Source of the DNA: a virus
DNA: 64,000 bases
Direction: 5' to 3' (one strand)
IMG/VR virus record: IMGVR_UViG_3300010399_000032
This document shows, in pieces, positions 10,351-57,586 of the stretch; the stretch's first letter is position 1, and each line of letters starts with the position of its first letter. The translations under genes were made by a program, and so were the position numbers. The notes beneath the pieces are model-generated. The model had not been told where the DNA came from and ran no database searches. It saw only the letters and a list, made by a program, of their open reading frames with translations.

Positions 10351-10739
10351 TATTTCCAACTTACCAAAATGTAACATTGTACATCTTTATTCCCAAATTC
10401 TGATTGGGATATAACACTGTGGTCAAATATATTCCATTGGAATTTGTTGTCCGAATCTGCATTAATTCGGTTCATAACATCCCTTATATGATTATAAAAT
10501 TCCTGATTAGACCATTCGGGGGTCTTATCATCCGTATAAAGGACAATTTCTACATCATCTTTACCGGCCCGAGCCGCCATCATTATATTTAATTTAATAT
10601 ATCCTTCGGAAAATACTTCGATATCTTCCTTAACCTTTCTAGAAATGGTTTGTTCCTTTAATTTTCTTTCCCGTTCTTTTTCAGCCTTAGCTTTCTTGGC
10701 ATTAGCGGTTAAAGCTTTCACATCATCAATAAACATCAT
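10350..10739 (-). CDS. hypothetical protein inserted between gp44 and gp62
   Basis: 129-aa ORF overlapping both neighbours. Confidence 0.7.
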   Translation of the reverse strand: MMFIDDVKALTANAKKAKAEKERERKLKEQTISRKVKEDIEVFSEGYIKLNIMMAARAGKDDVEIVLYTDDKTPEWSNQEFYNHIRDVMNRINADSDNKFQWNIFDHSVISQSEFGNKDVQCYILVSWK

Positions 10740-11677
10740 ATAAACTCACAATCTACCATGATTTCGGTTAACATGGCCACAGTATTAATTTCCTGATCAG
10801 CCACAAAAGCCGCTTGGTATTGGTACTTAGAAATGATAACCACGGCCTGTGGTATGCTGGTCGGCTTGACATATTGATATAATGCGTCATAGATCGACCT
10901 GAAAACCCTGGATTGGTCAACATCAGAATTCAGGACAACCCATTTCCTCATTGATGAGAAATCCTTATTCTTAAGGTTCTCAATCAATTCATTGAGGTTT
11001 TTAATCTCTGAAACTTGGGTAAGAGCACCGGAGTTAAGAGGACCAGAAGCCGCCAACCGTTGAAGTTCATTCAAAGCCCGACGATAATCAGGGAAATACC
11101 TGGTTACCAGTTTAACCAATACATCTTCTTGGTACTCAACATTTTCAAGGTTAAGGATTTCCTTGATACGGTCATAAAAAGCTTTGGCCATTTTAGGTTT
11201 GTCCTTAGATTCCAATCGGAATTCAAAGACAGCCATACGAGAAATGATGGCATCGATCAATTTTGACTTAAAGTTGCATGTCAGAATAAACGTGCAATGT
11301 TTGGTAAACTCATCGATCACCCCACGGAAAGAATTCTGGGCCTCAGGAGTTAGACCATCGACCTCATCCAAGATAATAACCTTGCGCCCACCAGCCTTTA
11401 AGGACATGGATGATGCATAAGAAGAAATCTTGGTTCGGAAGGTATCAACACCACGTTCCTTAGATGCATTGATCTTGATATAACTTAGACCAATTTCATC
11501 ACACATGGCTAGAGCCGCCGTGGTCTTACCTGACCCCGGCGGTCCTGAGAATAGGATATTCGGTATCTGTTTATTTGTTACATATGACTGGAAGGCCGAT
11601 TTCAAGCCAGGAGGTAATATACACTCCTCAACAGTATGAGGTCGGTATTTCTCAGCCCAAAGGAATTCTTCATTCAT
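10736..11677 (-). CDS. gp44: clamp loader large subunit gp44
   Basis: LWAEKYRP, GPPGSGKT, ILDEVD, FILTCN, FPDYRR. Confidence 0.97.
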   Translation of the reverse strand: MNEEFLWAEKYRPHTVEECILPPGLKSAFQSYVTNKQIPNILFSGPPGSGKTTAALAMCDEIGLSYIKINASKERGVDTFRTKISSYASSMSLKAGGRKVIILDEVDGLTPEAQNSFRGVIDEFTKHCTFILTCNFKSKLIDAIISRMAVFEFRLESKDKPKMAKAFYDRIKEILNLENVEYQEDVLVKLVTRYFPDYRRALNELQRLAASGPLNSGALTQVSEIKNLNELIENLKNKDFSSMRKWVVLNSDVDQSRVFRSIYDALYQYVKPTSIPQAVVIISKYQYQAAFVADQEINTVAMLTEIMVDCEFI

Positions 11678-12443: not shown

Positions 12444-13094
12444 TTACGCGGCGGCCGCCGGATCAGAGGCCTTACCCTTTTCGGATGAATTTTCATCTGA
12501 ACCAGCTTTAATCTTATCTTGTTCCGAGAATCCCATAACTATACCACGAGTAGCATAATCGGCAGAACTTTGAGCCAAGGAGAACATAGTTTCCCGTAGA
12601 TTTCTCTGAGTGCTATTCAGCCACTTATCTGCACCCAGACCATAATCCTTTGCCACATCACCAACCTTGTCAAAATTAGCTCCCAGGAAGATAACTTCCC
12701 AGGCCTTACTCTTGAATTTTTCTACAAGGGTTTTAACCTCATGTTTGTTATATTTCTGGGATGCATTTTCAATTCCGTCGGTCATGACCACGAAAATTGC
12801 CCGGTCCGGATTATCATCCAAAGCCGTCTGCATCATTCGAGCAGATGCATCATAAAGTGGAGTAGTTCCACGCGGTGTTACTTCCTCCAAATTGATATTC
12901 TTCCAATCATCCGTCTTACAATTCCGAATGACCTGATAATCAAATTCATTATTGGCCATATCAAAAATGGCCAATCTGATTTTGGTGTTATGTGGAAGCC
13001 TCTCCGCATAAGCATTAATTGATCCGATGGCTTCTTTTATGAGCCCATTATCATTCATGGATCCAGATCGGTCCAAAAGCATATATACATTCAT
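12444..13094 (-). CDS. stand-alone vWA domain protein
   Basis: DRSGSM MIDAS, GTTPLYDA, MTDGIENAS, WEVIFLGAN. Confidence 0.9.
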   Translation of the reverse strand: MNVYMLLDRSGSMNDNGLIKEAIGSINAYAERLPHNTKIRLAIFDMANNEFDYQVIRNCKTDDWKNINLEEVTPRGTTPLYDASARMMQTALDDNPDRAIFVVMTDGIENASQKYNKHEVKTLVEKFKSKAWEVIFLGANFDKVGDVAKDYGLGADKWLNSTQRNLRETMFSLAQSSADYATRGIVMGFSEQDKIKAGSDENSSEKGKASDPAAAA

Positions 13095-13750
13095 TTCGTT
13101 TCTTCCTCTAAAGCTATAAAATATCTAAGTGTTTTATCCGTATTTTCGAATGTAGCATAACCCTGCAATGAAATCTTAACATCATAATCAGCCGGAGCCA
13201 ATCTAATGTTATTCATCTTGAAAACAGCTTGGAAATCCTTACCATTATAATTCTCGATAATATATTCCGCTGCATTCGAAAGATCATTTGTCGGATCATA
13301 GACCTTCAATACCAAATTACCCTCCTTACCAATTACGGTAAGATGGGTAAATGTATTAAGATTACCAAGTTTGGTTAATTGTTGGAAAATACTCTGAGTA
13401 AGAGTAAATTCAGCATCAGGAAGGTCAATTGTATTCACCTCATCTGACTTAGTGTGCACAATTGCAGGGTTGCAATAGCCATACTTAAGCTGGAGATTTT
13501 TATCCTTCATGGTTAGATAAGAATCCTGGAAAGTTAGATCAGGATCATTGAATGATGAATAGTTGGCCAAGAATTGGGGCAGATCATAGATAGCAAAAGC
13601 CTTAGGAAAACTATCCTTGAGTACGGCTTGACAGTAAATAAAGTCTTCCGGATGGATGGTTTCCTGTTCATTTCCTTCCTTGATTATCAAGGAATCGTTG
13701 ATGGTTGCAAAATTCTTTAGTACAGCTACAGTTGATTCATGTAATTTCAT
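13091..13750 (-). CDS. gp45: sliding clamp gp45
   Basis: MKL...T..VLKNFATIN.S, FAIYDL..FL, Y.IALE. Confidence 0.95.
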   Translation of the reverse strand: MKLHESTVAVLKNFATINDSLIIKEGNEQETIHPEDFIYCQAVLKDSFPKAFAIYDLPQFLANYSSFNDPDLTFQDSYLTMKDKNLQLKYGYCNPAIVHTKSDEVNTIDLPDAEFTLTQSIFQQLTKLGNLNTFTHLTVIGKEGNLVLKVYDPTNDLSNAAEYIIENYNGKDFQAVFKMNNIRLAPADYDVKISLQGYATFENTDKTLRYFIALEEETK

Positions 13751-15316: not shown

Positions 15317-15514
15317 TTATATGTTTATCATATCCAACTTTATACTCTCCCTAACGTTCCAATCACGATTATAAATATGTAAATCGGTTTCATATATTCG
15401 AGATTTTACCGTATGGAAAATTTGAATATTGGGGATTTCTTGCATCCTTTCAATATGACTAAAAATGCCGGAAAACGTATGTTCAATTTTTTTGGAAACT
15501 GGAGTTATTGTCAT
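15317..15514 (-). CDS. small hypothetical protein (array member)
   Basis: ATGA overlap with upstream ORF. Confidence 0.55.
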   Translation of the reverse strand: MTITPVSKKIEHTFSGIFSHIERMQEIPNIQIFHTVKSRIYETDLHIYNRDWNVRESIKLDMINI

Positions 15515-15720
15515 TTTTCAACCATATATTCTTGTACGGAAGGTCTCAACATTCGGCCATCAGTGCTATAAGGTAGTAATGTCCGCCTTCTTTCTGCAAA
15601 ACATCGGGCAATTTCACCTTTTTGTTTGTTAACAGTAATGAAATTATCATAATCATGCTCAAAAATTTCATGTAGTCTATCAACCAAATTTGTGTGTAAT
15701 ACCGAATGTAGGGGCGTCAT
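15511..15720 (-). CDS. small hypothetical protein (array member)
   Basis: GAAGG upstream of ATG; packed. Confidence 0.55.
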   Translation of the reverse strand: MTPLHSVLHTNLVDRLHEIFEHDYDNFITVNKQKGEIARCFAERRRTLLPYSTDGRMLRPSVQEYMVEK

Positions 15721-15889
15721 CTTTACCTTCCTTTAAAATATTGGACATAGACTGTGTTTGCCATATGGTGTGGCGGATATTATCTATGAGAAATTGTGCG
15801 CGCAGAGCGGCTATTCCTATGGGAGAACAAAATGGGAGTTCGGTATTCGCCTTGACACGAATGATCCTATCTAAGTTAATTGGGCGCAA
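15680..15889 (-). CDS. small hypothetical protein (array member)
   Basis: TTG start, overlaps neighbours. Confidence 0.45.
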   Translation of the reverse strand: MRPINLDRIIRVKANTELPFCSPIGIAALRAQFLIDNIRHTIWQTQSMSNILKEGKDDAPTFGITHKFG

Positions 15890-16074
15890 TTATGCAATCC
15901 ATCTTCCAATTCACGCCGTATATTGAAAATAATATCCACTTTGTCGCGGCGGGCCCGGCACGCATTCATATAAGGTTCATTTTTCTGGGAATAATATATG
16001 TAAGTAGGAAATTTTACGCGAAAAAAGCGAGATAATCTTTCCTTCTGTAACTTTCTAAAATTCACTCGTTCCAT
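15871..16074 (-). CDS. small hypothetical protein (array member)
   Basis: ATG 1 nt after upstream stop. Confidence 0.55.
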   Translation of the reverse strand: MERVNFRKLQKERLSRFFRVKFPTYIYYSQKNEPYMNACRARRDKVDIIFNIRRELEDGLHNCAQLT

Positions 16075-16075
16075 T

Positions 16076-16291
16076 TTACACCATTTTTTGCTTAATTTGG
16101 TTTTTAATGTTAATAACCAACCATACTACGGTTGATCGACCTAGACTCTCAGTCCTGGCAGTCCTGGCTCGGTCGAGCTTTACAAGACCCTCGAAGCCGA
16201 GACCGGCCGGCCCACCATCCAATGTTTCTCGTACAGCCATTATTATACCATTGGTATTTTTCTTTAATTGCTCCGGTAAAATCGATTTCAT
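16076..16291 (-). CDS. small hypothetical protein (array member)
   Basis: GGTG RBS, ATGA overlap. Confidence 0.55.
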   Translation of the reverse strand: MKSILPEQLKKNTNGIIMAVRETLDGGPAGLGFEGLVKLDRARTARTESLGRSTVVWLVINIKNQIKQKMV

Positions 16292-16533
16292 ATTTCACCA
16301 CCATATCCATATAGGTGTTTATAATCTGTTGCATCGGAAATTGTGTTATGGAGACCTGAGTTCATTCGTAATATAGGAAGACTTTGGCTATGAAAATAAG
16401 TCGCTATACGAAAAATCTTCCGGTCTTTATCATCAAATTGATCGATCAATTGCCCAATATGATTTCCCGGGAACTTATAAGATTCGGGGAAAGGGAAAAT
16501 ATAAAACAAACGATCAGAAACCTGCTTCATCAT
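16288..16533 (-). CDS. small hypothetical protein (array member)
   Basis: GGAGATA-ATG start at 16533. Confidence 0.6.
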   Translation of the reverse strand: MMKQVSDRLFYIFPFPESYKFPGNHIGQLIDQFDDKDRKIFRIATYFHSQSLPILRMNSGLHNTISDATDYKHLYGYGGEI

Positions 16534-16543
16534 TATCTCCAAT

Positions 16544-16573
16544 AAAAAACCGGAGGCCATAGACCTCCGGTTT
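16544..16573 (-). terminator. intrinsic terminator after DUF6745 gene
   Basis: AAACCGGAGG-N7-CCTCCGGTTT followed by T-run on minus strand. Confidence 0.8.
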
Positions 16574-16606
16574 CGGCTTGTTCCCTAGACGGACGACGGA
16601 ACCAGC

Positions 16607-17491
16607 TTACGAACAGACTTCCTCATTGAACTTCTCGGGATTAAAGCCAAATGATGCAGCGATAACCTCATGAGGAGTACTTCCTGGCATTGCACCAAGA
16701 TGGAACTTACGGCGAGTACCATCTGGTTCTAGAGTGCTATTATTGACCTCGATGATCCGCACCGGCTGGCCAGCAACCTGCATTTCAATGAGCCGGCGTG
16801 GATTACCAGCGCCATCAACGTCCTCGGAAATCACCTTGCTATTACGTTCCGAGAGATAACGGTCAAAACCATAAATCTCCAACATAATACGACGGAGCTC
16901 CGCGTTGGTTTCCTTCTCAATCACATCTGGATTGAGACGGTCCTTGTCGGTGATGATCCAGGTATTCTCATTCGGAATGGTATAACCATGCCAAGAATAG
17001 AGACCATTTCCATCAAAATACTTGATGGCCATACCATTTTCGGCATGGAGGCGACCCGCGGCATCACGGTGGAGTTCCTCAGGGCGCTCGGTGATAATCG
17101 CCAACTCATCATAAGCCCACCACCAACCAGCATTCGCAGCAATGGTCATCATGGGGTGCAACTTCTTGATTTCGGGAATATCAACCGAATCAATCTGGTC
17201 AAAGAAATCATAGAATGAAAGGAAATAGATATCGTGCTGACCATAAATCACGTTATCAAACACACCGCCAATATTCTTGTGAATATAGGCCGCCGCTGCA
17301 AACGGCGAATCAAACCACATAAACTTACCAGGAGGCGGAAGATCAGCCACCTTGTAAGCTTCATTCACGGCTTCCTCAACCAACTTTCGGTCGGAGCGCC
17401 CAGTTGCCAGCCCAATCTTGACCCACTTGTCAACGACCTTGGGCATAAGGGCAATTTCATCATCAGTGAGTTTCGTAAGCTTCTCAGCCAT
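16607..17491 (-). CDS. DUF6745-domain protein
   Basis: YGQHD..FL.FYDFF, GWWW, ERP..LHRD..GRLH...G.AI...DG..LY.WHG, E.NAELRRIMLE.YG, V.NSTLEPDGT.RKF.L. Confidence 0.8.
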   Translation of the reverse strand: MAEKLTKLTDDEIALMPKVVDKWVKIGLATGRSDRKLVEEAVNEAYKVADLPPPGKFMWFDSPFAAAAYIHKNIGGVFDNVIYGQHDIYFLSFYDFFDQIDSVDIPEIKKLHPMMTIAANAGWWWAYDELAIITERPEELHRDAAGRLHAENGMAIKYFDGNGLYSWHGYTIPNENTWIITDKDRLNPDVIEKETNAELRRIMLEIYGFDRYLSERNSKVISEDVDGAGNPRRLIEMQVAGQPVRIIEVNNSTLEPDGTRRKFHLGAMPGSTPHEVIAASFGFNPEKFNEEVCS

Positions 17492-17540
17492 AATATAGAC
17501 TCTTTTCAGTTTCCGTTATGATCTAGAAGTAGTGCAGGAA

Positions 17541-18053
17541 TTAATCCTGCACCACGCGCTCCTCAGCACCGGCGCTTTCAATCTGGCGACCGATGTAGTA
17601 ATTACCAGCCTTGAGGCGGATGGCATCATGCTCCTGGTGACCCAGGACAACACCAACATCACCACCGCCTTCGACGGTAAGCGTACCAATATAAAGATCG
17701 GTACGGGTGATAACCTTGGCCTTCATCAACTGCTCGGTGACGCCAGGGTCCTTAAACATACGGACCACAGCGGCCTTGACATTCTGAGCACCGGCGAGGA
17801 GTTCCTCAACGGCCCGATCAGTCTTAACAGGCTGAGAGGCCTGTACACGGTCCATCACATCGATGGAGTGGTGATGCCCGGTCATTTCACCTTCCAGTAC
17901 AACCAAACGGCCGTCCTTGGGTTCAATTTCACTGACTGGATTCACCTTGATAGTATCTGGAAGGCGGAAAATCAACACGTCACCCTGGCGTGCCACACCC
18001 GTCTTACCATCGTAATCATGAACACTCATAATAGTTTCCTTTGTTTGTTTCAT
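17541..18053 (-). CDS. His-motif protein that usually partners DUF6745
   Basis: RQGDVL, LEGEMTGHHH, HQEHDAI.L..G.Y...RQ.E. Confidence 0.75.
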   Translation of the reverse strand: MKQTKETIMSVHDYDGKTGVARQGDVLIFRLPDTIKVNPVSEIEPKDGRLVVLEGEMTGHHHSIDVMDRVQASQPVKTDRAVEELLAGAQNVKAAVVRMFKDPGVTEQLMKAKVITRTDLYIGTLTVEGGGDVGVVLGHQEHDAIRLKAGNYYIGRQIESAGAEERVVQD

Positions 18054-18071
18054 TCCTTAGTATGGAAGATA

Positions 18072-18110
18072 GTCTAGCAAAATCGGGGGCGTTTGTCTAC
18101 CTCCGATTTT
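18072..18110 (-). promoter_or_regulatory. sigma70-like promoter overlapped by an inverted repeat
   Basis: TAGACA-N17-TAGACT on minus strand, within AAAATCGGAGG...CCCCCGATTTT dyad. Confidence 0.55.
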
Positions 18111-18114
18111 ATAT

Positions 18115-18330
18115 TTAGACGGCTAAACGATAAAAAGCCGTACGGTCACCGTTTACATTACGGTAATTGGTGAAGATATCAAAACCTTCCTGACGGAGGT
18201 CATAAATGCGCTTTGAAATTGCATCCGATGGCACCTTCGTAACTCTGGAAAGACGGCGGCTCGTAATACCGGGGGTCTCAGTGTTATCATATAGTGCGGA
18301 AAGAATGCGGTCAATCTGTGAATTTCTCAT
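18115..18330 (-). CDS. small winged HTH DNA-binding protein
   Basis: IL..L......GIT...L......P...ISKRIYDLR.EG..I......V.G....YRL. Confidence 0.75.
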   Translation of the reverse strand: MRNSQIDRILSALYDNTETPGITSRRLSRVTKVPSDAISKRIYDLRQEGFDIFTNYRNVNGDRTAFYRLAV

Positions 18331-18351: not shown

Positions 18352-18507
18352 CTAGAACCGACCAAAAATTATAATCAGCCCTAGCGCAATAATTACTGAC
18401 CCTATGATTATAGAGATTAGTTTAAGGAATGGCAAGATGAGTATGAAAGCCACCAACATAAACAAGAAAAGGAACATAATCCCCCAGGAAATCTCAATAG
18501 TATCCAT
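18352..18507 (-). CDS. 51-aa hydrophobic membrane protein (not in ORF track)
   Basis: MDTIEISWGIMFLFLFMLVAFILILPFLKLISIIIGSVIIALGLIIIFGRF*, AAGGA RBS. Confidence 0.6.
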   Translation of the reverse strand: MDTIEISWGIMFLFLFMLVAFILILPFLKLISIIIGSVIIALGLIIIFGRF

Positions 18508-18530: not shown

Positions 18531-19736
18531 TTAGAAAGTTTGCTCGGCATTTTCGGCCGGCGGCGATGGCTCCGGTGCAGGAGGAACAATTTCCGCGTCG
18601 ACCTTCTGGTAGAGTTCAAGGAACCCCTTCTTCATTTCATTATCGAAGCGGTTCAGACAAAGGGTAATTGCCTTCATCTTATCATATCCGAAGATCATAT
18701 ACGCCTCAGCAATATGCACAAGCCGGCGAGTGGAAATCAAATCATTGATTGCACCCTGTTCAAAACTCTTACGAGTAATGTTGGCCCATTGAACGAGATT
18801 TCCGACAAAGGCATCATTCTCATAATCATGCATTGCAAACACGTTACGGAGGATCTTTTCCTCAATCTTGATAGGTGGATAATCCTGTTCAAAGGTGATG
18901 GGGAAACGCTCTAGGAACGCCTCATTAAGCACATTGGTTCCGATGAACCGACCATCAGATGAACCCTTACCCTTGGTATTAGCCGTTGCAATGATGGTAA
19001 AACCAGGTGCTGGATAGACCACGCGGTTGATTGGCTTAAGGAAAATAGGCTTTCCTTCCAGGACAGGCTGGAGGCACATCAACTTGGAATCACCCAGATC
19101 GATTTCATCCAGGAGCAGGACAGCGCCTCGCTCCATAGCGATAACAACCGCTCGGTCACGCCAAACAGTCTGACCATTGGCCAATTCGAAACCACCAATC
19201 AGGTCATCCTCATCCGTCTCACGGGTAATATTCACCCGGATCAATTCTCGCCCAGTCTGGGCGCAAACTTCCTCAGGGGTAATGGTCTTGCCGTTACCGG
19301 ACAGACCCGTGATAAAGATTGGATAAAACTTACGGGAAGCAACGATTGACTTGATATCCCCATAATTGCCAAAGGGCACATAACCCGGCAATGGCTTAGG
19401 AATATAGGAAATCGCGGGAGGAGCCTCAGTACTCGGGTTCATTGCAGGGGCCTGAACCGACACCGGCTCAGGTGCGATATTGACCACGGGCTGAGGAGAC
19501 TGTACGGGAACAATACGATCCTGCCGGGATCGCTTGGCAGGACCTGCAACTGGTCCGGTCAGTGAATAAACACCACGAGCAACGCGCAACTTAGGATCAT
19601 TAGTCAGCCAGGCCGGCAACTTGATCTTGAGCGCCGAGGAAACATTAATAACCTGGGCCCGGTTGACGGTCTTAACGTCACCATAAAATTCCTTAATCTT
19701 ATCAAGGAATTCTTGACGGTCTACATGCTTAGGCAT
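18531..19736 (-). CDS. MoxR/CobS-like AAA+ ATPase
   Basis: GLSGNGKT, LLLDEIDL, ATANTKGKGS.DGRFIGTNVLNEAFLERF, ISTRRLVHI. Confidence 0.92.
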   Translation of the reverse strand: MPKHVDRQEFLDKIKEFYGDVKTVNRAQVINVSSALKIKLPAWLTNDPKLRVARGVYSLTGPVAGPAKRSRQDRIVPVQSPQPVVNIAPEPVSVQAPAMNPSTEAPPAISYIPKPLPGYVPFGNYGDIKSIVASRKFYPIFITGLSGNGKTITPEEVCAQTGRELIRVNITRETDEDDLIGGFELANGQTVWRDRAVVIAMERGAVLLLDEIDLGDSKLMCLQPVLEGKPIFLKPINRVVYPAPGFTIIATANTKGKGSSDGRFIGTNVLNEAFLERFPITFEQDYPPIKIEEKILRNVFAMHDYENDAFVGNLVQWANITRKSFEQGAINDLISTRRLVHIAEAYMIFGYDKMKAITLCLNRFDNEMKKGFLELYQKVDAEIVPPAPEPSPPAENAEQTF

Positions 19737-19767
19737 GGCATATCCTTTTAAATGTCACAATAGGAAG

Positions 19768-19803
19768 GTAATAACGGTTGCCTCGGTTTTCAAGGCAACC
19801 GGG
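19768..19803 (-). promoter_or_regulatory. inverted repeat with possible promoter upstream of AAA gene
   Basis: GGTTGCCTTG-AAAAC-CGAGGCAACC dyad; TTGAAA-N17-TACCTT. Confidence 0.4.
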
Positions 19804-19805
19804 TT

Positions 19806-22130
19806 CTATTCTCCAGTGATTACAGAAATAAATTTCTGCAAAACCACTCGGTTCAGTTTCTTAGATTCATACATCTTCTGGAAGGCCTTAGCGAGACCGG
19901 CCTTGGACTCCTTCTTTACAACCATTCCTTCCATTCCCAATTCGTTCATGAACTTAGGATTCACAAGGTATTCCAGATCGTAACCGGAATTGACCGTCTG
20001 CACATAACCATCCTTGATATAGGTATCTCGCATTTGAGTGGCCTTGGTATAATCAACCTTATACCGACTTGAAATATAATCGGCCAGCTTAACCCGGTGA
20101 CCGGCATCATAGATGTGGAAATTGATCAGATTGACACCGCAACGATCCCGCAAACGCACCAAAAGAGGATTGGTCACCGTAAACTTGGAATTATATCCAT
20201 ATCCATATCCATTTCCAATTTCCATGGGATAGACCTTACGAGTCTCATTATCTTGCATATAACCTTCATCAGGAGCATACATGCCCTTGTTTTCCTGCTG
20301 GAATTCACTCCAGGTCGGGTAAGATGCATTGGAATCACCATCAGTCAAGAAAATAACATTGGTTACCTCAATCTTATACTTGGCCTGGAAAGCCTTAATA
20401 ATTTCCTCAGAAGCCACGATAGCTTCATTAAGAGGAGTACCAGGCATAGTATCCCTCTCACACCGGAAACCATTCGCCATACCCCACAAATACACCAGCA
20501 TGGTATTATACTCACTTTGGGTCATTCGCGAGGATAGGAAATTACGGAACTTAAGATTGCCGAATTGAATGGTATTAGCCTTTCTGGTTTGTTGGTCATA
20601 AACCTTAGGCCATATTTGATTAATGTTATTATAATCAGCCCCATTAACATCCCGGAAACTATATACATCAAACGGAACATTAATCTGCCGACAAAACATC
20701 GACAAAGAAATCAATTGCTTAACCGTGGCGCGCAACTTGTTAGCCATTGAACCGGACCAATCAATAAACATGATAAATCCATGGTTCTTACCCTCTTGCA
20801 CCGTTTCACGGCGAAGGAACAAGTCATTATGATAAGCATAGGCATGAACCTTGCCCATATCAAGCTTACCGGACCGAGAAATTGAGGTCCTCAACTGCTC
20901 CTCAGCCGCCTTGCGCATTTCAAATTCCTTAACCAAGTAAGCGACGGTCGCTTGCTCAGTCTGCCGGAACTGATTAAATTCATTGGTGATTACTTCCAAT
21001 GTCTGGTATGGTCGATTCGGATACTTGCTATTTCGCAGATTATTCCAATAAGTATTATAATCTTGGATGACAACCTTATAATCATCAATGGACTTAAGGG
21101 CTGCACCAGGGTTAACCTTAGGAATTTCACTATAACCAATCAGAGGCGCGTCATTCTTGACCATATCCTCCAGAACCTTATTACCCGACTCAATGGTCGA
21201 AGCCTCAGGCAAAGACAGAGGGTCGTGATCCTCATCCTCAGATTTAGGTTCAGGATTTTCGTCACCAGATCCACCACCTTCATCAGAAGGCGAGGTCTCA
21301 TCATCCTCTGAGGTATCCTCCGATTCAGGTTCGGGAGTATCATCTTCAAATTCAACGGGAGTAGAAGGAGGAGGAGTCGGCATTTCCTCCTCCTCCTCAT
21401 CAAGAAGGTCCTCGATTTCCTCAGTGTCCGGAGTTTCCGGCTCAGGAAGATCATCCTCCTCAAATGTACCTTCACCACCGCCGGTGGGCTTAATCTTCAA
21501 AGTAGAAATGGGAGAAAGCTTTTGCTTTGACAATGCACAAAACTTTACGATTTCCTTGGTCAGGGCAACGGTGTCCTCCCAAGTCTTAAGATCATAAGCC
21601 TTATCGATAAAGACTTGCTCCTTGGGGCTAAACTTAATCAACATCCCGCGAGCAAGCCCGGCCTTGAAATAAACATTCATACGGTCGATGAAGGGCATCT
21701 TGTTGACCTTAGCATCATCCGTCGTACCAAAAAAACCACGATACCAGAGTTCCTGGTATCCCTTGGCATAGTCAATACGGCACCCAGGATAACGAATCTT
21801 CTGGAGCATGTCATTACGGACATCCTCCACCACATTCAAATAACCCTTGATACTGCCCACCCGCGTAGGATCACCAAAAGTGTCCTGGGCGATGGATTCC
21901 ATATCCTCAAGCCAACCTCCAGCAGGGGTGACTAGAGCATGACCCACCTCATGGATCAGCAACATATCATACAAGTGATCCGAAATATCATCCCAGACAG
22001 GGAGATTAAGGACACGGTGGAGCAAATCAAAAGACGCGGTCTTGGCCCCGGGGACATGGCGAACCAAAATGTCCTCGGTGGCCAACATCCGCGCCAACGA
22101 TGCTTTGATTGTGTGGTGATTAGTCGGCAT
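19806..22130 (-). CDS. zincin metallopeptidase - acidic linker - vWA protein (CobT-like partner of AAA+)
   Basis: HEVGH + NVVED, E/D/P-rich linker, DWSGSM MIDAS, GTPLNEA, FLTDGDS. Confidence 0.9.
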   Translation of the reverse strand: MPTNHHTIKASLARMLATEDILVRHVPGAKTASFDLLHRVLNLPVWDDISDHLYDMLLIHEVGHALVTPAGGWLEDMESIAQDTFGDPTRVGSIKGYLNVVEDVRNDMLQKIRYPGCRIDYAKGYQELWYRGFFGTTDDAKVNKMPFIDRMNVYFKAGLARGMLIKFSPKEQVFIDKAYDLKTWEDTVALTKEIVKFCALSKQKLSPISTLKIKPTGGGEGTFEEDDLPEPETPDTEEIEDLLDEEEEEMPTPPPSTPVEFEDDTPEPESEDTSEDDETSPSDEGGGSGDENPEPKSEDEDHDPLSLPEASTIESGNKVLEDMVKNDAPLIGYSEIPKVNPGAALKSIDDYKVVIQDYNTYWNNLRNSKYPNRPYQTLEVITNEFNQFRQTEQATVAYLVKEFEMRKAAEEQLRTSISRSGKLDMGKVHAYAYHNDLFLRRETVQEGKNHGFIMFIDWSGSMANKLRATVKQLISLSMFCRQINVPFDVYSFRDVNGADYNNINQIWPKVYDQQTRKANTIQFGNLKFRNFLSSRMTQSEYNTMLVYLWGMANGFRCERDTMPGTPLNEAIVASEEIIKAFQAKYKIEVTNVIFLTDGDSNASYPTWSEFQQENKGMYAPDEGYMQDNETRKVYPMEIGNGYGYGYNSKFTVTNPLLVRLRDRCGVNLINFHIYDAGHRVKLADYISSRYKVDYTKATQMRDTYIKDGYVQTVNSGYDLEYLVNPKFMNELGMEGMVVKKESKAGLAKAFQKMYESKKLNRVVLQKFISVITGE

Positions 22131-51011: not shown

Positions 51012-52142
51012 TCACAGTTTATTGAAAAATGGATGTAGTGCGACCATATTTAGGTTCATACCAGAATATGTAGTAATTTTTTGACCCACCGATGCAGACA
51101 GCGGAACAAAATGAATATCTCCATTTGGAGCTAGAATCCCGCCTGCGTAAGCACTAGACGCAGTATAAATCAGAGAATAAGTGGATACAATTCCGGTCGC
51201 CGAAATTTTTTGTCCTCTATTTCCTGATAATTTGACGAAGTGGATGTCACCATTCGGAGATAGGACTCCTCCTAGATACGCATTAGACGCAGTGTAAACC
51301 AGCGAGTATGTAGAGACGACTCCGGCAACCGAGATCTTCTGTCCTACAGTCGCGGTTCTGGGAACAAAATGAATATCTCCATTTGGAGCTAGAACTCCAC
51401 CACCATATTCAACAGCAGCATTTGTATAGATCAATGAATAGGTTGAGACTACACCCGCAGAGGATATTTTTTGCCCAACGATTGCTGCCAAAGGTACAAA
51501 ATGGATATCCCCATTTGGAGCTAGAACTCCACCTTGATATGCATTAAATGTAGTGTAAACCAGAGAATATGTGGATACCACACCGGAGGATGAGATTTTT
51601 TGTCCAACATTGGCTTGAGAGGGAACAAAATGAATATCTCCATTTGGAGATAGGACTCCTCCAGAATATCCACCAATAACAGTATAAACCAATGAGTATG
51701 TCGAAACAACTCCCGAAGAAGAAATTTTTTGACCTACAGCACCGTAAGGCACAAAGTGGATATCACCATTTGGAGCTAGAACTCCACCGGATGATGCACC
51801 CAAAGAGCTTGTATAGATCAGGGAATAGGTGAACGCCACCCCTGAAGCTGATATTTTTTGGCCAACAGTAGTTTGATATGGAACAAAATGGATATCACCA
51901 TTTGGAGCTAGAACTCCACCTTGATATGCATTAGATGTTGTGTAGACCAAAGAATATGTAGAAACTACCGTCTTATTGAAAAGTTGCCCCGCTGCTTGTG
52001 TTTCTGCTAAGAGGTTTTTGAAATTATTCCAGGCCGATAGGGTTGTATCCAAAGTACTAGAATCTGCCGTTGGAATTACCCATTGGAGGGTGTTGGCTAC
52101 TTCTGTCTTGAAATGTGGATTTATTTTGTTCGTATTTGTCAT
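51012..52142 (-). CDS. 7-repeat beta-propeller protein (paralogue C)
   Basis: 7 x VVSTYSLVYT..AY.GGVLAPNGDIHFVP....VGQKIS..G; ends HPFFNKL. Confidence 0.8.
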   Translation of the reverse strand: MTNTNKINPHFKTEVANTLQWVIPTADSSTLDTTLSAWNNFKNLLAETQAAGQLFNKTVVSTYSLVYTTSNAYQGGVLAPNGDIHFVPYQTTVGQKISASGVAFTYSLIYTSSLGASSGGVLAPNGDIHFVPYGAVGQKISSSGVVSTYSLVYTVIGGYSGGVLSPNGDIHFVPSQANVGQKISSSGVVSTYSLVYTTFNAYQGGVLAPNGDIHFVPLAAIVGQKISSAGVVSTYSLIYTNAAVEYGGGVLAPNGDIHFVPRTATVGQKISVAGVVSTYSLVYTASNAYLGGVLSPNGDIHFVKLSGNRGQKISATGIVSTYSLIYTASSAYAGGILAPNGDIHFVPLSASVGQKITTYSGMNLNMVALHPFFNKL

Positions 52143-53152
52143 TATAATTTATTTAACCATGGTGATGAAATAACTCCAAAATCTAGTGGTACGGCCGGTA
52201 GGGTTGAAATTTTTTGCCCTACAGAAGCAGTATCCGGAATGAAGTGGATATCACCATTTGGAGATAGGACTCCACCTGCATATGCACTTGCAGTTGTATA
52301 AACTAAGGAATAGGTTGAAACCACTCCGTTGATATCTATTTTTTGCCCAACGGGCGCGTTCGTCGGAATGAAGTGGATATCACCATTTGGAGATAGGACT
52401 CCACCTGCATATGCACTATTAATATCGGTATAAACTAAGGAATAGGTTGAAACCACTCCGTTGATATCTATTTTTTGCCCAACGGGCGCGTTCGCCGGAA
52501 TGAAGTGGATATCTCCATTGGGGGCCAAAACACCACCAAAATATGCACCATTAATATCGGTATAAACTAAGGAATAGGTTGAAACCACTCCGTTGATATC
52601 TATTTTTTGACCAACTGTAGCTGCATATGGACCGAAGTGGATATCTCCATTTTGTGATAGAACCCCACCAGCATATGCGGTAAAGGATGTATAAATCAAG
52701 GAATAAGTAGAGACGACTCCTGATGCTGATATTTTTTGGCCGACTGTGGCAAGAAACGGAGCGAAGTGTATATTCCCGTTCGGATCTAGAGTACCACCCA
52801 AATAGGCTTCTGTAATTATGGAATAGGTAGAAACCGCTCCGTTGATATTTATTTTTTGCCCAACCGTTGCTGAATATGGAACGAAGTGAATATCCCCGTT
52901 TGGAGCCAGAACACCACCAACATGTGCGCCATTAATATTGGTATAAATCAAGGAATAAGTAGAAACCACTGCCTGTTCCGCGGCATTGAATAATTGCCCC
53001 GGTACAGAACTTTTCCTTAATAGATATTGGAATGCCGTAAAGGCTGCTAAATCGGTTCCAATAGATGAATTATCGGCCGTTGGAAGGATACCTCGACCAA
53101 CAGTTTGTACATTTGATAGCCATGATGGGCTAATTTTGAAAACATCTGTCAT
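52142..53152 (-). CDS. 6-repeat beta-propeller protein (paralogue B)
   Basis: 6 copies of same repeat; ends SPWLNKL. Confidence 0.8.
   Translation of the reverse strand: MTDVFKISPSWLSNVQTVGRGILPTADNSSIGTDLAAFTAFQYLLRKSSVPGQLFNAAEQAVVSTYSLIYTNINGAHVGGVLAPNGDIHFVPYSATVGQKININGAVSTYSIITEAYLGGTLDPNGNIHFAPFLATVGQKISASGVVSTYSLIYTSFTAYAGGVLSQNGDIHFGPYAATVGQKIDINGVVSTYSLVYTDINGAYFGGVLAPNGDIHFIPANAPVGQKIDINGVVSTYSLVYTDINSAYAGGVLSPNGDIHFIPTNAPVGQKIDINGVVSTYSLVYTTASAYAGGVLSPNGDIHFIPDTASVGQKISTLPAVPLDFGVISSPWLNKL
52240..52610. repeat. near-identical 132-bp tandem blade repeats
   Basis: gtataaactaaggaataggttgaaaccactccgttgatatctattttttg at 52296, 52428, 52560. Confidence 0.9.
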
Positions 53153-54280: not shown

Positions 54281-57200
54281 TTATGTGCCTATGACAGTTG
54301 CAGTATATTGATTTGCTGTGGGGGCTGAAACGAATACCAAATTAGCTGAATTTGCTGTAACATAAAGAATATCCGGATAGACCAAATAACCACTAGCCCA
54401 TTCTCTCACTGAAATGAAAATATTATTTGCAAAACTCAAATTGTGGGTAAGGGTGTAAGTTGTACTTGAACCATCGCCTACGTTTGCGGTATAAGAACTA
54501 AATGATCCACCTCCACCACTTGCGGTACTTGCAATGGTGACGGAATCATTGATCGTATCAGGCGTTAGAGTAATATTTGAACCGGCAATGAGAGTAAGAT
54601 TTGCAGATGGACCATTGGCAATAACTAATGTACCTGCAACATTTATTGCTCCAAAATCATTAGCTGTTGCCGCAGAATTGGCTTTGGCATATGCACCTTG
54701 AGCCGTTATCAAAACGTTATTTGATGATAGGTATGCATTATTCGCCAACACATAAGCAGCATTGGCCTGACCATATGCCGATCCTGCGGTTGTATTATCC
54801 GCATTGGCTTTCGTGAATGCGCCCTGTGCTGTAACTAATACGGTATTGGCGAAGTTATAGGCATTATTACCCTGAGTGTAAGCTAGATTTGCCTCGGCAA
54901 ATGCACCTTGTGCCGTAACCAATACGGTATTTGAGGAATTATATGCGTTGTTTCCTTGGGTGTAAGCCAAATTAGCTTCTGCATATGCTGACCTGGCCGT
55001 GATGTTATCGGCATTGGCTTGGGCAAATGCACCTTGAGCCGTTATCAAAACTGAGTTGGATGAAATATAAGCGTTGTTGGCAAGAATATATGCGGCATTG
55101 GCCTGACCATATGCCGATCCTGCGGTTGTATTATCCGCATTGGCTTTCGTGAATGCGCCCTGTGCTGTAACCAATACAGTGTTTGATGAGTTATAGGCAT
55201 TATTACCCTGAGTATATGCCAGGTTAGCTTCCGCAAATGCACCTTGAGCCGTTACGAGAACCGTATTAGCTTGACCGTATGCGGCATTGGCTTGATTATA
55301 GGCTGAATTGGCTTGGGTATATACCGTAGAAATCCAAACAACGTTGGCTCCTCGCATGAGATACCAGGTATTGGTTGAATTGGCATAGAATTGGACGGTT
55401 TCTCCCTGATACAACGTAATAGCCGTATTAGCGACCTGATTCTCGATTGAACCAAAAATTTGAGGATAAACCGACAAATCCAAGGTCGTTTCATTTTTTA
55501 TTGCAATTCGGGACCAAGTATTTGCAACAGGAAGGATTAATCCTGTATTACCTGTATTTGCCGTCCGGATTTCCTGGAAACTATGATTTCCTGAAACTGG
55601 GCGGGCCGTTGCTTGGGTTGAACCATTTGCTGAAACAGATACTACCAAAGTTGCCAATGGCATAGCTGTATTTGCAATCAAGGAAACGGCATTAACTTCT
55701 GCAAATGCCGCTTGGGCGGTAATATTTGAGTTATTTGCCTGATCATATGCGGTATTAGCTTGTACATAAGCAGCATTTGCCTGATTAAAGGCTGCATTAG
55801 CTTGGTTATATGCACTGGTAACACCTGAACCACCGGCCGAATTTGCCGTGGCATAAGCGCTTTGAGCCGTTGCAAGGGCCAAGTTAGCTTCCGTATATGC
55901 TGATCCAACAGTGATATTATCATTGTTGGCCATAAGATACGCAGATTGCGCGGTGATTAAGACCGTATTCGACGCATTATATGCGTTGTTTCCTTGGCTA
56001 TAGGCCAGATTTGCCTCGGCAAATGCTCCCTGTGCTGTGACAAGAACCGTATTGGATGAATTGTAGGCATTATTTCCTTGGCTGTAGGCTAGGTTAGCTT
56101 CCGAAAAAGCTCCTTGTGCTGTAACCAATACGGTATTAGCAAAATTGTAAGCATTGTTGCCTTGAGTATATGCCAGGTTAGCTTCTGCATAGGCCGCTCG
56201 GGCAGTAATATTAGAATTGTTGGCTTGGGTAAAGGCCCCCTGAGCCGTAACCAATACGGTATTTGAGGAATTATATGCGTTGTTTCCTTGGCTATAGGCC
56301 AGATTTGCCTCAGCGAAGGCGCCTTGCGCCGTTAAGAGAACCGTATTAGATGAATTGTAGGCATCATTTGCATGAGTATATGCTGTATTGGCTTCAAGGA
56401 AAGCTCCTTGAGCCGTCACTAGAACCGTATTGGATGAGAGATAGGCATTATTGGCCAGAACGTAGGCCGCATTAGCTTCTATATAAGCACCGACGGCCGT
56501 AATGTTTACAGAGTTCGCATAAGCCCAAGCAGTATTGGCCTCAAGGAAGGCACCTTGAGCCGTTATCAAAACGTTATTTGATGATAGGTATGCATTATTC
56601 GCCAACACATAAGCAGCATTGGCTTGACCATAAGAAGACCCGGCTGTTGTGTTGGCGGACTGTGCCAAAGATTCGGCTGCATTGGCTTGTGAATAAGCTG
56701 AGACCACCGTGATATTATCGGCATTGGCTTGGGCAAATGCACCTTGTGCCGTAACCAGTACGGTATTTGAGGAATTGTAGGCATTATTGGCATGAATATA
56801 AGCAGCATTGGCTTCATCATAGGCCGGTACTACATTAATTGTATTGGCATAATCATACGCATTATTGGCTAAAACGTAGGCCGAGTTAGCTTCGGTAAAT
56901 GCGCCCTGAGCCGTTATCAATACGGTATTGGCCCAGTTATAGGCATTGTTACCTTGGATGTATGCGGAATTTGCCTCAGAAAAAGCCGATCCAACAGTTA
57001 CATTAACGGAATTTGCGTAGGTCCAAGCAGTATTGGCCTCAAGGAAAGCCCCCTGAGCGGTTATCAGTACCGTATTTGAGGAATTATAAGCATTATTGGC
57101 CAAATCGTAAGCAGCATTCGCTTCTGTATAAGCCGAAATTACTGTTATATTAGCATTATTAGCCAAATCATATGCTGAGTTTGCTTCAATATATGCTGAA

Positions 57201-57586
57201 ATTGCCGTGATGTTTGCTGCATTAGCCTGAGCGAAAGCCGCATAAAGGCTAGTATTATCGGTGTTAGCTTGAGCTAATGCTTGGGTGGCAATGGAATTTG
57301 CAGTATTGGCCTGGTCGTATGCTGAACCTGCCGTTATGTTTACATTATTGGCCTGGTCGTATGCTGACCCGGCTATGGTATTAGCTGAATTAGCTAAATC
57401 CCATGCGGTGTTAGCTTCCACATATGCGGATTGTGACGTAATATTGACAGAATTGGCCTCACCGAAAGCTGCCTGAGCCGTCGTGAGTGCTAATTGACCT
57501 GTTACAGAATCAGATGATTGAATTGTTGGGACGCCGGCTCGAATTTGTCTCTGGCCGATGGAAACTTTAGTTGTTATGTTTCCCAT
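54281..57586 (-). CDS. long Ala/Asn-rich heptad-repeat fibre protein
   Basis: A-x-x-x-A-N-x heptads, 28-aa unit AQGAFAEANLAYSQGNNAYNSSNTVLVT; globular insert; C-term GDGSSTTYTLTHNL domain. Confidence 0.75.
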   Translation of the reverse strand: MGNITTKVSIGQRQIRAGVPTIQSSDSVTGQLALTTAQAAFGEANSVNITSQSAYVEANTAWDLANSANTIAGSAYDQANNVNITAGSAYDQANTANSIATQALAQANTDNTSLYAAFAQANAANITAISAYIEANSAYDLANNANITVISAYTEANAAYDLANNAYNSSNTVLITAQGAFLEANTAWTYANSVNVTVGSAFSEANSAYIQGNNAYNWANTVLITAQGAFTEANSAYVLANNAYDYANTINVVPAYDEANAAYIHANNAYNSSNTVLVTAQGAFAQANADNITVVSAYSQANAAESLAQSANTTAGSSYGQANAAYVLANNAYLSSNNVLITAQGAFLEANTAWAYANSVNITAVGAYIEANAAYVLANNAYLSSNTVLVTAQGAFLEANTAYTHANDAYNSSNTVLLTAQGAFAEANLAYSQGNNAYNSSNTVLVTAQGAFTQANNSNITARAAYAEANLAYTQGNNAYNFANTVLVTAQGAFSEANLAYSQGNNAYNSSNTVLVTAQGAFAEANLAYSQGNNAYNASNTVLITAQSAYLMANNDNITVGSAYTEANLALATAQSAYATANSAGGSGVTSAYNQANAAFNQANAAYVQANTAYDQANNSNITAQAAFAEVNAVSLIANTAMPLATLVVSVSANGSTQATARPVSGNHSFQEIRTANTGNTGLILPVANTWSRIAIKNETTLDLSVYPQIFGSIENQVANTAITLYQGETVQFYANSTNTWYLMRGANVVWISTVYTQANSAYNQANAAYGQANTVLVTAQGAFAEANLAYTQGNNAYNSSNTVLVTAQGAFTKANADNTTAGSAYGQANAAYILANNAYISSNSVLITAQGAFAQANADNITARSAYAEANLAYTQGNNAYNSSNTVLVTAQGAFAEANLAYTQGNNAYNFANTVLVTAQGAFTKANADNTTAGSAYGQANAAYVLANNAYLSSNNVLITAQGAYAKANSAATANDFGAINVAGTLVIANGPSANLTLIAGSNITLTPDTINDSVTIASTASGGGGSFSSYTANVGDGSSTTYTLTHNLSFANNIFISVREWASGYLVYPDILYVTANSANLVFVSAPTANQYTATVIGT

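Follow-up and report, generated by a model that had tools for sequence, protein, structure and literature searches.

The region between positions 15317 and 18330 of a 64-kb stretch of viral DNA (IMG/VR record IMGVR_UViG_3300010399_000032, 64,000 nucleotides (nt), here called the window) raises the question of whether a row of adjacent genes makes up one system or several. The window belongs to the genome of a T4-like phage. An earlier note, made from the letters alone, had described in this region a helix-turn-helix (HTH) gene, a gene for a protein with histidine motifs, a gene for a DUF6745 protein and six small open reading frames (ORFs), and all of them are present on the minus strand as described. 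That note had further treated the last two of these genes before the small ORFs as a self-contained unit, had joined the HTH gene to them in one candidate system, and had proposed that the small ORFs supply variable modules to the two-protein core. The explanation favored here, which we regard as moderately probable when taken as a single joint statement, divides the region into three separate things, namely a backbone winged HTH gene with its terminator, a mobile two-gene cassette bracketed by hairpins, and six chained orphan mini-genes that fill a variable slot of the T4-like type and are transcribed apart from the cassette rather than being modules of it.

The histidine-motif and DUF6745 gene pair

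The occurrence of the pair was followed in 241 DUF6745-encoding loci (L001–L241; 81 viral contigs, 80 bacterial genomes and 80 metagenomes), whose ORFs were searched with hidden Markov models (HMMs) of both families. The histidine-rich partner stands beside DUF6745 in 160 of the 163 loci with room on both sides, which come from phages, Actinomycetes and Rhizobiales, and 16 loci of genomes with high guanine-cytosine (GC) content missed the strict adjacency rule purely through inflated longest-ORF calls. In nearly all cases the partner gene lies immediately upstream in the same orientation, as it does in the window; in six viral loci it lies immediately downstream. The two genes are an obligate two-gene module. 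At least 600 pattern matches were counted in bacterial genomes and at least 311 relatives in viral contigs; the proteins are annotated as hypothetical, and a literature search found no paper mentioning DUF6745 or PF20530, so the statement in the earlier note that the pair is widespread and uncharacterized was well founded. The pair thus belongs to a known but unstudied family, and it is among the more widespread gene pairs without a literature of their own.

No third conserved gene was found in the viral loci, where the neighbors include RecE-like, methyltransferase, primase-like and terminase genes; in temperate phages the pair occupies moron-like positions near terminase genes. In Actinomadura, Streptomyces and their relatives, it lies in a conserved chromosomal neighborhood with RecQ-like, ThrE and HemN-like genes. 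The conserved block, seen in L085 and about 70 other actinomycete loci, consists of genes for a RecQ-like helicase, a ThrE exporter, a HemN-like radical SAM protein and a sulfatase-like protein, and indicates vertical inheritance of the pair in Streptosporangiales and Streptomyces. In high-GC genomes, spurious overlapping frames contaminated the clustering of neighbors, and only opposite-strand blocks were usable.

The partner of the window is encoded at 17541–18029 (minus strand; 162 amino acids (aa); phrog_27831, E 6e-12). Its ORF is open back to 18053, but since homologues are about 162 aa long, the ATG at 18029 is probably the start. The three motifs that had been read from the sequence before (RQGDV, GE.TGHHH and H.EH) occur as RQGDV, GEMTGHHH and HQEH. 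A total of 105 homologues was recovered, and across 62 of them Q15, G16, D17, G47, G51, H52, H54, H131, E133 and H134 are invariant, as is a C-terminal G-x-Q-x-ES...R...D stretch. Two forms of the partner exist, a short one of about 100–118 aa and a long one of 155–180 aa with a helical insert, and the window copy is of the long form. Its AlphaFold2 model (predicted local distance difference test (pLDDT) 87.7, predicted template modeling score (pTM) 0.80) is beta-rich with the helical insert. The partner had no match in Pfam, which was also run on short-form partners, in NCBIfam or in PADLOC (at E 0.1). Its fold gave no match in the PDB (all Foldseek E values above 0.4; best VIA-align Z 3.0 among 48,161 representatives; second-look runs agree), and a profile search of PDB sequences gave no lead. 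For a cupin in particular, there was no structural match above Z 3.0 among these representatives and no Pfam cupin match, and a distant relation is still compatible with these results.

The DUF6745 gene (16607–17491, minus strand) encodes a compact, repeat-less protein of 294 aa that matches PF20530 (E 4.7e-47; 160.4 bits against a cut-off of 27, residues 81–289) and phrog_31813 (E 2.6e-15). Among the 497 homologues recovered, an alignment of 19 placed a tetrapeptide repeat of 50–250 residues (SAVx, SNVx or DQLx) in the longer proteins between the motifs SP and YGQHD, at the exact point where the N-terminal region (65 residues, with SP at its end) gives way to the DUF6745 domain. In the window this gap is 19 residues long and holds no repeat. 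The earlier note had described a long repetitive insert at this point in many DUF6745 proteins and seen only about 20 residues here; with the tract present in the longer homologues and missing from the window, this description is right. The tract is common but not universal in the family, and the compact form, with about 20 residues at this point, is shared with a clade comprising at least 18 further clusters at 90% identity. As a separate observation, 58 of the 241 loci (23 viral, 34 metagenome, 1 genome) have a contig end within the 5' portion of the DUF6745 gene. Short-read assemblies seem to break off at the tetrad-repeat tract, and the long forms are therefore probably under-counted.

The AlphaFold2 model of the window DUF6745 (pLDDT 93.3, pTM 0.83) likewise gave no match in the PDB (all Foldseek E values above 0.4; second-look runs agree), and no lead came from a profile search of PDB sequences. 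Its best VIA-align Z among the 48,161 representatives was 4.2 and covers only the beta-meander residues 217–268; the N-terminal half is hardly covered by the structure comparisons, and therefore no new fold is claimed. A search of BFVD structures returned a single match, to an uncharacterized phage protein. In the ESM Atlas, a cyanobacterial cluster carries DUF6745 fused to leucine-rich repeats (LRRs), which fits a variable recognition region on a constant core; the variable element, whether tract or LRRs, is found at one fixed point of DUF6745. NCBIfam gave no lead for the window DUF6745, and PADLOC (E 0.1) matched neither it nor the HTH protein. A PADLOC match of one long DUF6745 protein to 'REase_II' lay within the repeat tract and was taken as a low-complexity artifact.

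The slot next to the cobS-like gene

The winged HTH gene (18115–18330, minus strand; 71 aa; PF14090 (HTH_39), E 2e-6) lies upstream of the pair. For a comparison of this slot, the surroundings of relatives of the CobS-like gene were collected, 80 loci in all. In 15 of these related phage contigs an HTH homologue of 30–47% identity lies between the cobS-like gene and a glycosyltransferase-like gene, in the order cobT, cobS, HTH, glycosyltransferase-like gene, gp45 and gp44. All 15 are without the pair; from the HTH match to the glycosyltransferase-like gene they hold about 145 nt, with a terminator hairpin in the spacer. Since these relatives keep the HTH gene at the same place without the pair, it is a backbone gene of the phage lineage and lies outside the cassette. 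The idea of a self-contained unit therefore survives for the histidine-motif and DUF6745 genes, but not for the HTH gene.

As the 15 relatives hold nothing but some 145 nt and a terminator at this slot, the window carries 2.9 kb of inserted DNA between the HTH terminator and the glycosyltransferase-like gene, in which lie the pair, the six small ORFs and, between them, a strong terminator. After the HTH gene stands a hairpin with A- and U-tracts (about 18079–18111, minus strand; free energy (dG) −17.4 kcal/mol, z −3.7), which none of 200 shuffles equaled in folding and which takes the same position as the HTH terminator hairpin of the relatives. Most likely this hairpin is the terminator of the HTH gene and marks the insert's upstream edge. 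A promoter with a dyad had been proposed at 18072–18110; that proposal is not upheld, since the hairpin is found where the relatives have their HTH terminator, the single match of sigma-70 type there is a weak one (9/12), and across the region such matches are no more numerous than in shuffles. The terminator that had been placed at 16544–16573 was recovered as a strong intrinsic-terminator-like hairpin at about 16540–16574 (minus strand; 13-bp stem and U6, dG −25.9 kcal/mol, z −2.9), which closes the cassette, so that the pair is bracketed by hairpins. No direct repeats were found flanking the 2.9-kb insert, no enrichment of T4 late-promoter motifs was found, and the region had no DNA match among GenBank phages by megablast.

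Around the insert, the minus strand also encodes a clamp loader (10736–11677), a gp45-type sliding clamp (13091–13750), the CobS-like AAA protein (18531–19736) and a CobT-like protein (19806–22130). The cobS-like and cobT-like genes (18531–22130) have a GC content of 45–49%, against 36–43% in adjoining backbone genes, and their synteny is kept in all relatives. Between the cobS-like gene and the HTH gene there is a hydrophobic ORF of 51 aa (18352–18507), uncalled in the public collection, and inside it lies the best sigma-70-like match of the region (TTGCCA-17-TATAAT at 18435–18407). Elsewhere in the window, tandem DNA repeats of 129–132 nt (51103–52678) and of 84 nt (54816–57203) lie within large minus-strand ORFs, among which an ORF of 1101 aa (54281–57586) shows heptad NQANAAY-like repeats. 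These large repeat-bearing ORFs probably encode tail-fibre-like proteins.

The six small ORFs and the mini-genes of relatives

Downstream of the cassette terminator, six chained ORFs of 65–81 aa tile 15317–16533 on the minus strand with overlaps of 4–41 nt. The first, s1 (16288–16533; 81 aa, or 90 aa if it starts at 16560, within the hairpin), has GGAG before ATGATG, and s2 (16076–16291, 71 aa) starts at an ATGA that overlaps the stop of s1. These are followed by s3 (15871–16074, 67 aa) and by s4 (15680–15889, 69 aa), which has a TTG start, begins with MRPI and is uncalled in the public collection. The fifth, s5 (15511–15720, 69 aa), begins with MTPL and holds seven degenerate tetrads in which each fourth residue is hydrophobic, and s6 (15317–15514, 65 aa) starts at an ATGA overlapping the s5 stop. 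Most of the six have Shine-Dalgarno (SD)-like sequences and coupled stops and starts, and in near-identical phages their products are kept at 92–99% protein identity. They are taken as real genes, s4 being the least certain of them.

The six are also orphans. No homologue of them was found in the 241 DUF6745 loci or the 80 related T4-like cobS loci, or in GenBank phages at E 0.01. In a collection of 5.8 billion proteins, s1 has relatives only in its own cluster and in one 71%-identical protein. When IMG/VR was searched with a degenerate DNA pattern made from the half of s1 that is conserved, no match was obtained. No true homologue of s5 was found among 1.84 billion representatives, and the matches that this search returned were spurious repeat translations and were set aside. 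As a side observation, the s1 relative P0243, on a contig of 2,191 bp, is identical to s1 in the C-terminal 40 residues and about 40% identical in the N-terminal 40, with two in-frame single-residue indels, and the relatives of s2, s3 and s6 on the same contig are 94–99% identical. On sequence comparison, this suggests a mosaic boundary within s1, just downstream of the cassette terminator.

The proposal that such arrays provide variable modules has some footing elsewhere in the family. Two loci, L167 (a 113-kb contig in which the pair follows a DnaB-like helicase gene) and L164, encode a compact DUF6745, 54% identical to that of the window, together with the histidine partner, and the pair is flanked by ORFs of 46–78 aa, chained through ATGA, that read MKPV-(xxQV)n-DQLKEDMK. 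Arrays of SV and SAV type are found at L046 and L078, where the DUF6745 of L078 keeps a short residual tract, and one SV-type ORF is found at L033. In L167/L164, L046 and L033, the tiny genes beside a repeat-less DUF6745 are free-standing copies of the tract, so this part of the proposal stands. The QV mini-genes also hold a second open frame (MIKSIIKSG...) in another phase (L167 8976–9400, L164 1761–2185), most likely a side effect of the repeat rather than a gene.

For the six ORFs of the window, the proposal is not supported. With a period-4 identity score of at least 0.5, no ORF was found in the 18-kb region around the pair, whereas the relatives score 0.5–0.75; no ORF with a four-residue repeat was found in the 64-kb window, and HMMs of the QV, SV and SAV mini-proteins had no match there (hmmsearch --max, E 100). 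The window is not an instance of the detached-repeat arrangement. Between the six ORFs and the pair stands a terminator, and the ORFs have a lower, backbone-like GC content (30–43%, against 48–54% for the pair); they have no repeats, and they show no homology near other DUF6745 genes. The GC difference is only a hint, because the cobS and cobT genes are also GC-richer.

The earlier note had proposed to compare the loss of the insert with the presence of small-ORF arrays, and the outcome is at best a trend. Generic downstream arrays occur in 3/15 compact loci against 2/75 long ones (p 0.03), a comparison confounded by GC content; among low-GC loci only, the counts are 3/12 compact and 2/15 long. 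True tetrad mini-genes are found in 4/17 compact against 6/81 long loci (p 0.07), several of the 'long' single cases being doubtful. The other 13 of the 17 non-redundant compact loci have no mini-genes in their flanks, several of them with 2.5–8 kb on each side.

Readings of the locus and known systems

How the pair works can be sketched from its conserved and variable parts. The invariant His, Glu and Asp residues of the partner suggest that it binds a metal, and the strict pairing suggests that partner and DUF6745 would form a complex. In most homologues, the fast-changing tetrapeptide tract or the LRRs between the N- and C-domains may tune the binding of this complex, and the window copy, which is without the tract, would therefore have a fixed geometry or specificity. 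By analogy with gp54 of mycobacteriophage Tweety, phages may use the pair against systems of the host or of rival phages. The variable region might set which target is bound or how far apart the two DUF6745 domains stand, as is proposed for Tweety gp54 (PMC9262239).

Several points weigh against this account and the division of the locus into three. The fold of neither protein matches any solved structure, and the conserved synteny with housekeeping genes in actinomycetes fits a cellular role better than a role in conflict. The six ORFs match the repeat mini-genes of L167, L164, L046 and L033 in position, size and chaining, and s5 resembles these mini-genes in its period-4 pattern and its M-x-P-hydrophobic start. 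Composition alone is no proof of separate origins, because cobS and cobT are also GC-richer than the backbone. Furthermore, the view is limited to 64 kb of a 151.8-kb genome.

Two of the rival explanations concern the small ORFs. If these were merely open frames in a decaying spacer, their weak codon-usage scores (−0.02 to 0.10, where chunks of real genes average 0.24 and have their 5th percentile at 0.10), their want of homologues beyond near-identical phages and the TTG start required by the uncalled s4 would be accounted for. It would then be hard to see why one strand of a 1.25-kb stretch of about 37% GC is 99% tiled by frames that mostly have SD-like sequences and coupled stops and starts, why protein identity in relatives stays so high, and why the diverged half of s1 remains in frame through two single-residue indels, and we consider this very improbable. 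The possibility that all six small proteins, or a few of them (s4 and s5, for example), represent diverged or decayed free-standing modules that dock on the repeat-less DUF6745 and give it variable specificity is rated a little higher, though still as improbable. It draws on the relatives with a compact DUF6745, whose tetrad mini-genes have the same position, size (46–78 aa) and ATGA chaining, and on s5, whose period-4 hydrophobic power (1.89) ranks first among 401 small ORFs of the window, is reached by none of 500 shuffles and falls within the range of the QV mini-proteins (1.3–3.0). The starts MTPL (s5) and MRPI (s4) also recall the MKPV of the relatives; an M-x-P-hydrophobic start is found in 11 of the 401 small ORFs. 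Against it, a tetrad repeat at the level of identity is absent from all six ORFs, none is matched by a mini-protein HMM even at E 100, the other five have no period-4 signal, a terminator stands between pair and array, none has a homologue near a DUF6745 gene in any of the other loci, and small chained ORFs occur throughout this genome. The pattern of s5 and the starts of s4 and s5 could thus mark decayed members of a library or be chance. If the docking of such modules were true, a split core with exchangeable small proteins would not depend on the tetrad repeat.

The third rival concerns the pair itself, which may act in the cell as a small metal-dependent enzyme system, or be a module of defense or superinfection exclusion borrowed by phages, and not a counter-defense device. 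The conserved chromosomal position in Actinomadura, Streptomyces and their relatives beside RecQ-like, ThrE and HemN-like genes, the many invariant polar or charged residues of both proteins and the moron-like positions near terminase genes in temperate phages all speak for it. However, neither protein matches a PADLOC defense model, a hypervariable tract or LRRs on a core look more like a recognition module than a housekeeping enzyme, and the pair is also present in T4-like phages of strictly lytic type. This rival is a serious but unlikely one, and the division into a backbone HTH gene, a two-gene cassette with a probable role in conflict with host or rival systems and orphan mini-genes is retained.

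On this division, the six small ORFs amount to ordinary orphan filler, and s5 is the one weak lead among them. The window offers a clean, compact and hairpin-bracketed copy of a pair that has confident models and no solved relative, and this copy is suited to expression and structural work. It is also a counter-example to the idea of a detached repeat library: as a repeat-less core is found here in a large phage without repeat mini-genes within at least 64 kb, the core probably works alone. Annotation should not place the neighboring HTH gene or the small ORFs in one system with the pair.

Among known arrangements, the hyperplastic regions of T4-like phages consist of small orphan genes that evolve fast and stand in rows between conserved core genes. 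The six ORFs of the window resemble them with no difference noted, being chained orphans of 60–80 aa between genes of the replication module, in a slot that varies among relatives. The detached-repeat loci are like the window in having a compact DUF6745 with its histidine partner in a large phage, followed by chained same-strand ORFs of 45–80 aa, and differ from it in that the six ORFs of the window have no tetrad repeat and no match to the mini-protein HMMs.

For the DUF6745 family as a whole, Tweety gp54 (phrog_3416-type) is an analogy of architecture. In gp54, unique N- and C-terminal regions flank 40–48 tetrapeptide repeats, and the number of repeats tunes its activity against a prophage defense (PMC9262239); the passage on this architecture names no partner protein. 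The window DUF6745 differs from it in being without any repeat, and a tblastn search of phage records with the window DUF6745, a search by sequence only, gave 11 records, none of them Tweety. A further comparison is with two pairs from cultured phages, gp175/gp174 of Microcystis phage Ma-LMM01 and gp37/gp38 of Mycobacterium phage prophiGD102-1. They share with the window the same two families, order, strand and invariant residues, and all four proteins are annotated as hypothetical. In contrast to the window DUF6745, which has no tract between its N- and C-domains, gp38 of prophiGD102-1 carries about 50 DQLx tetrads, while the partner of the window, at 162 aa the long form with the helical insert, is larger than the 123–131 aa partners of the cultured examples.

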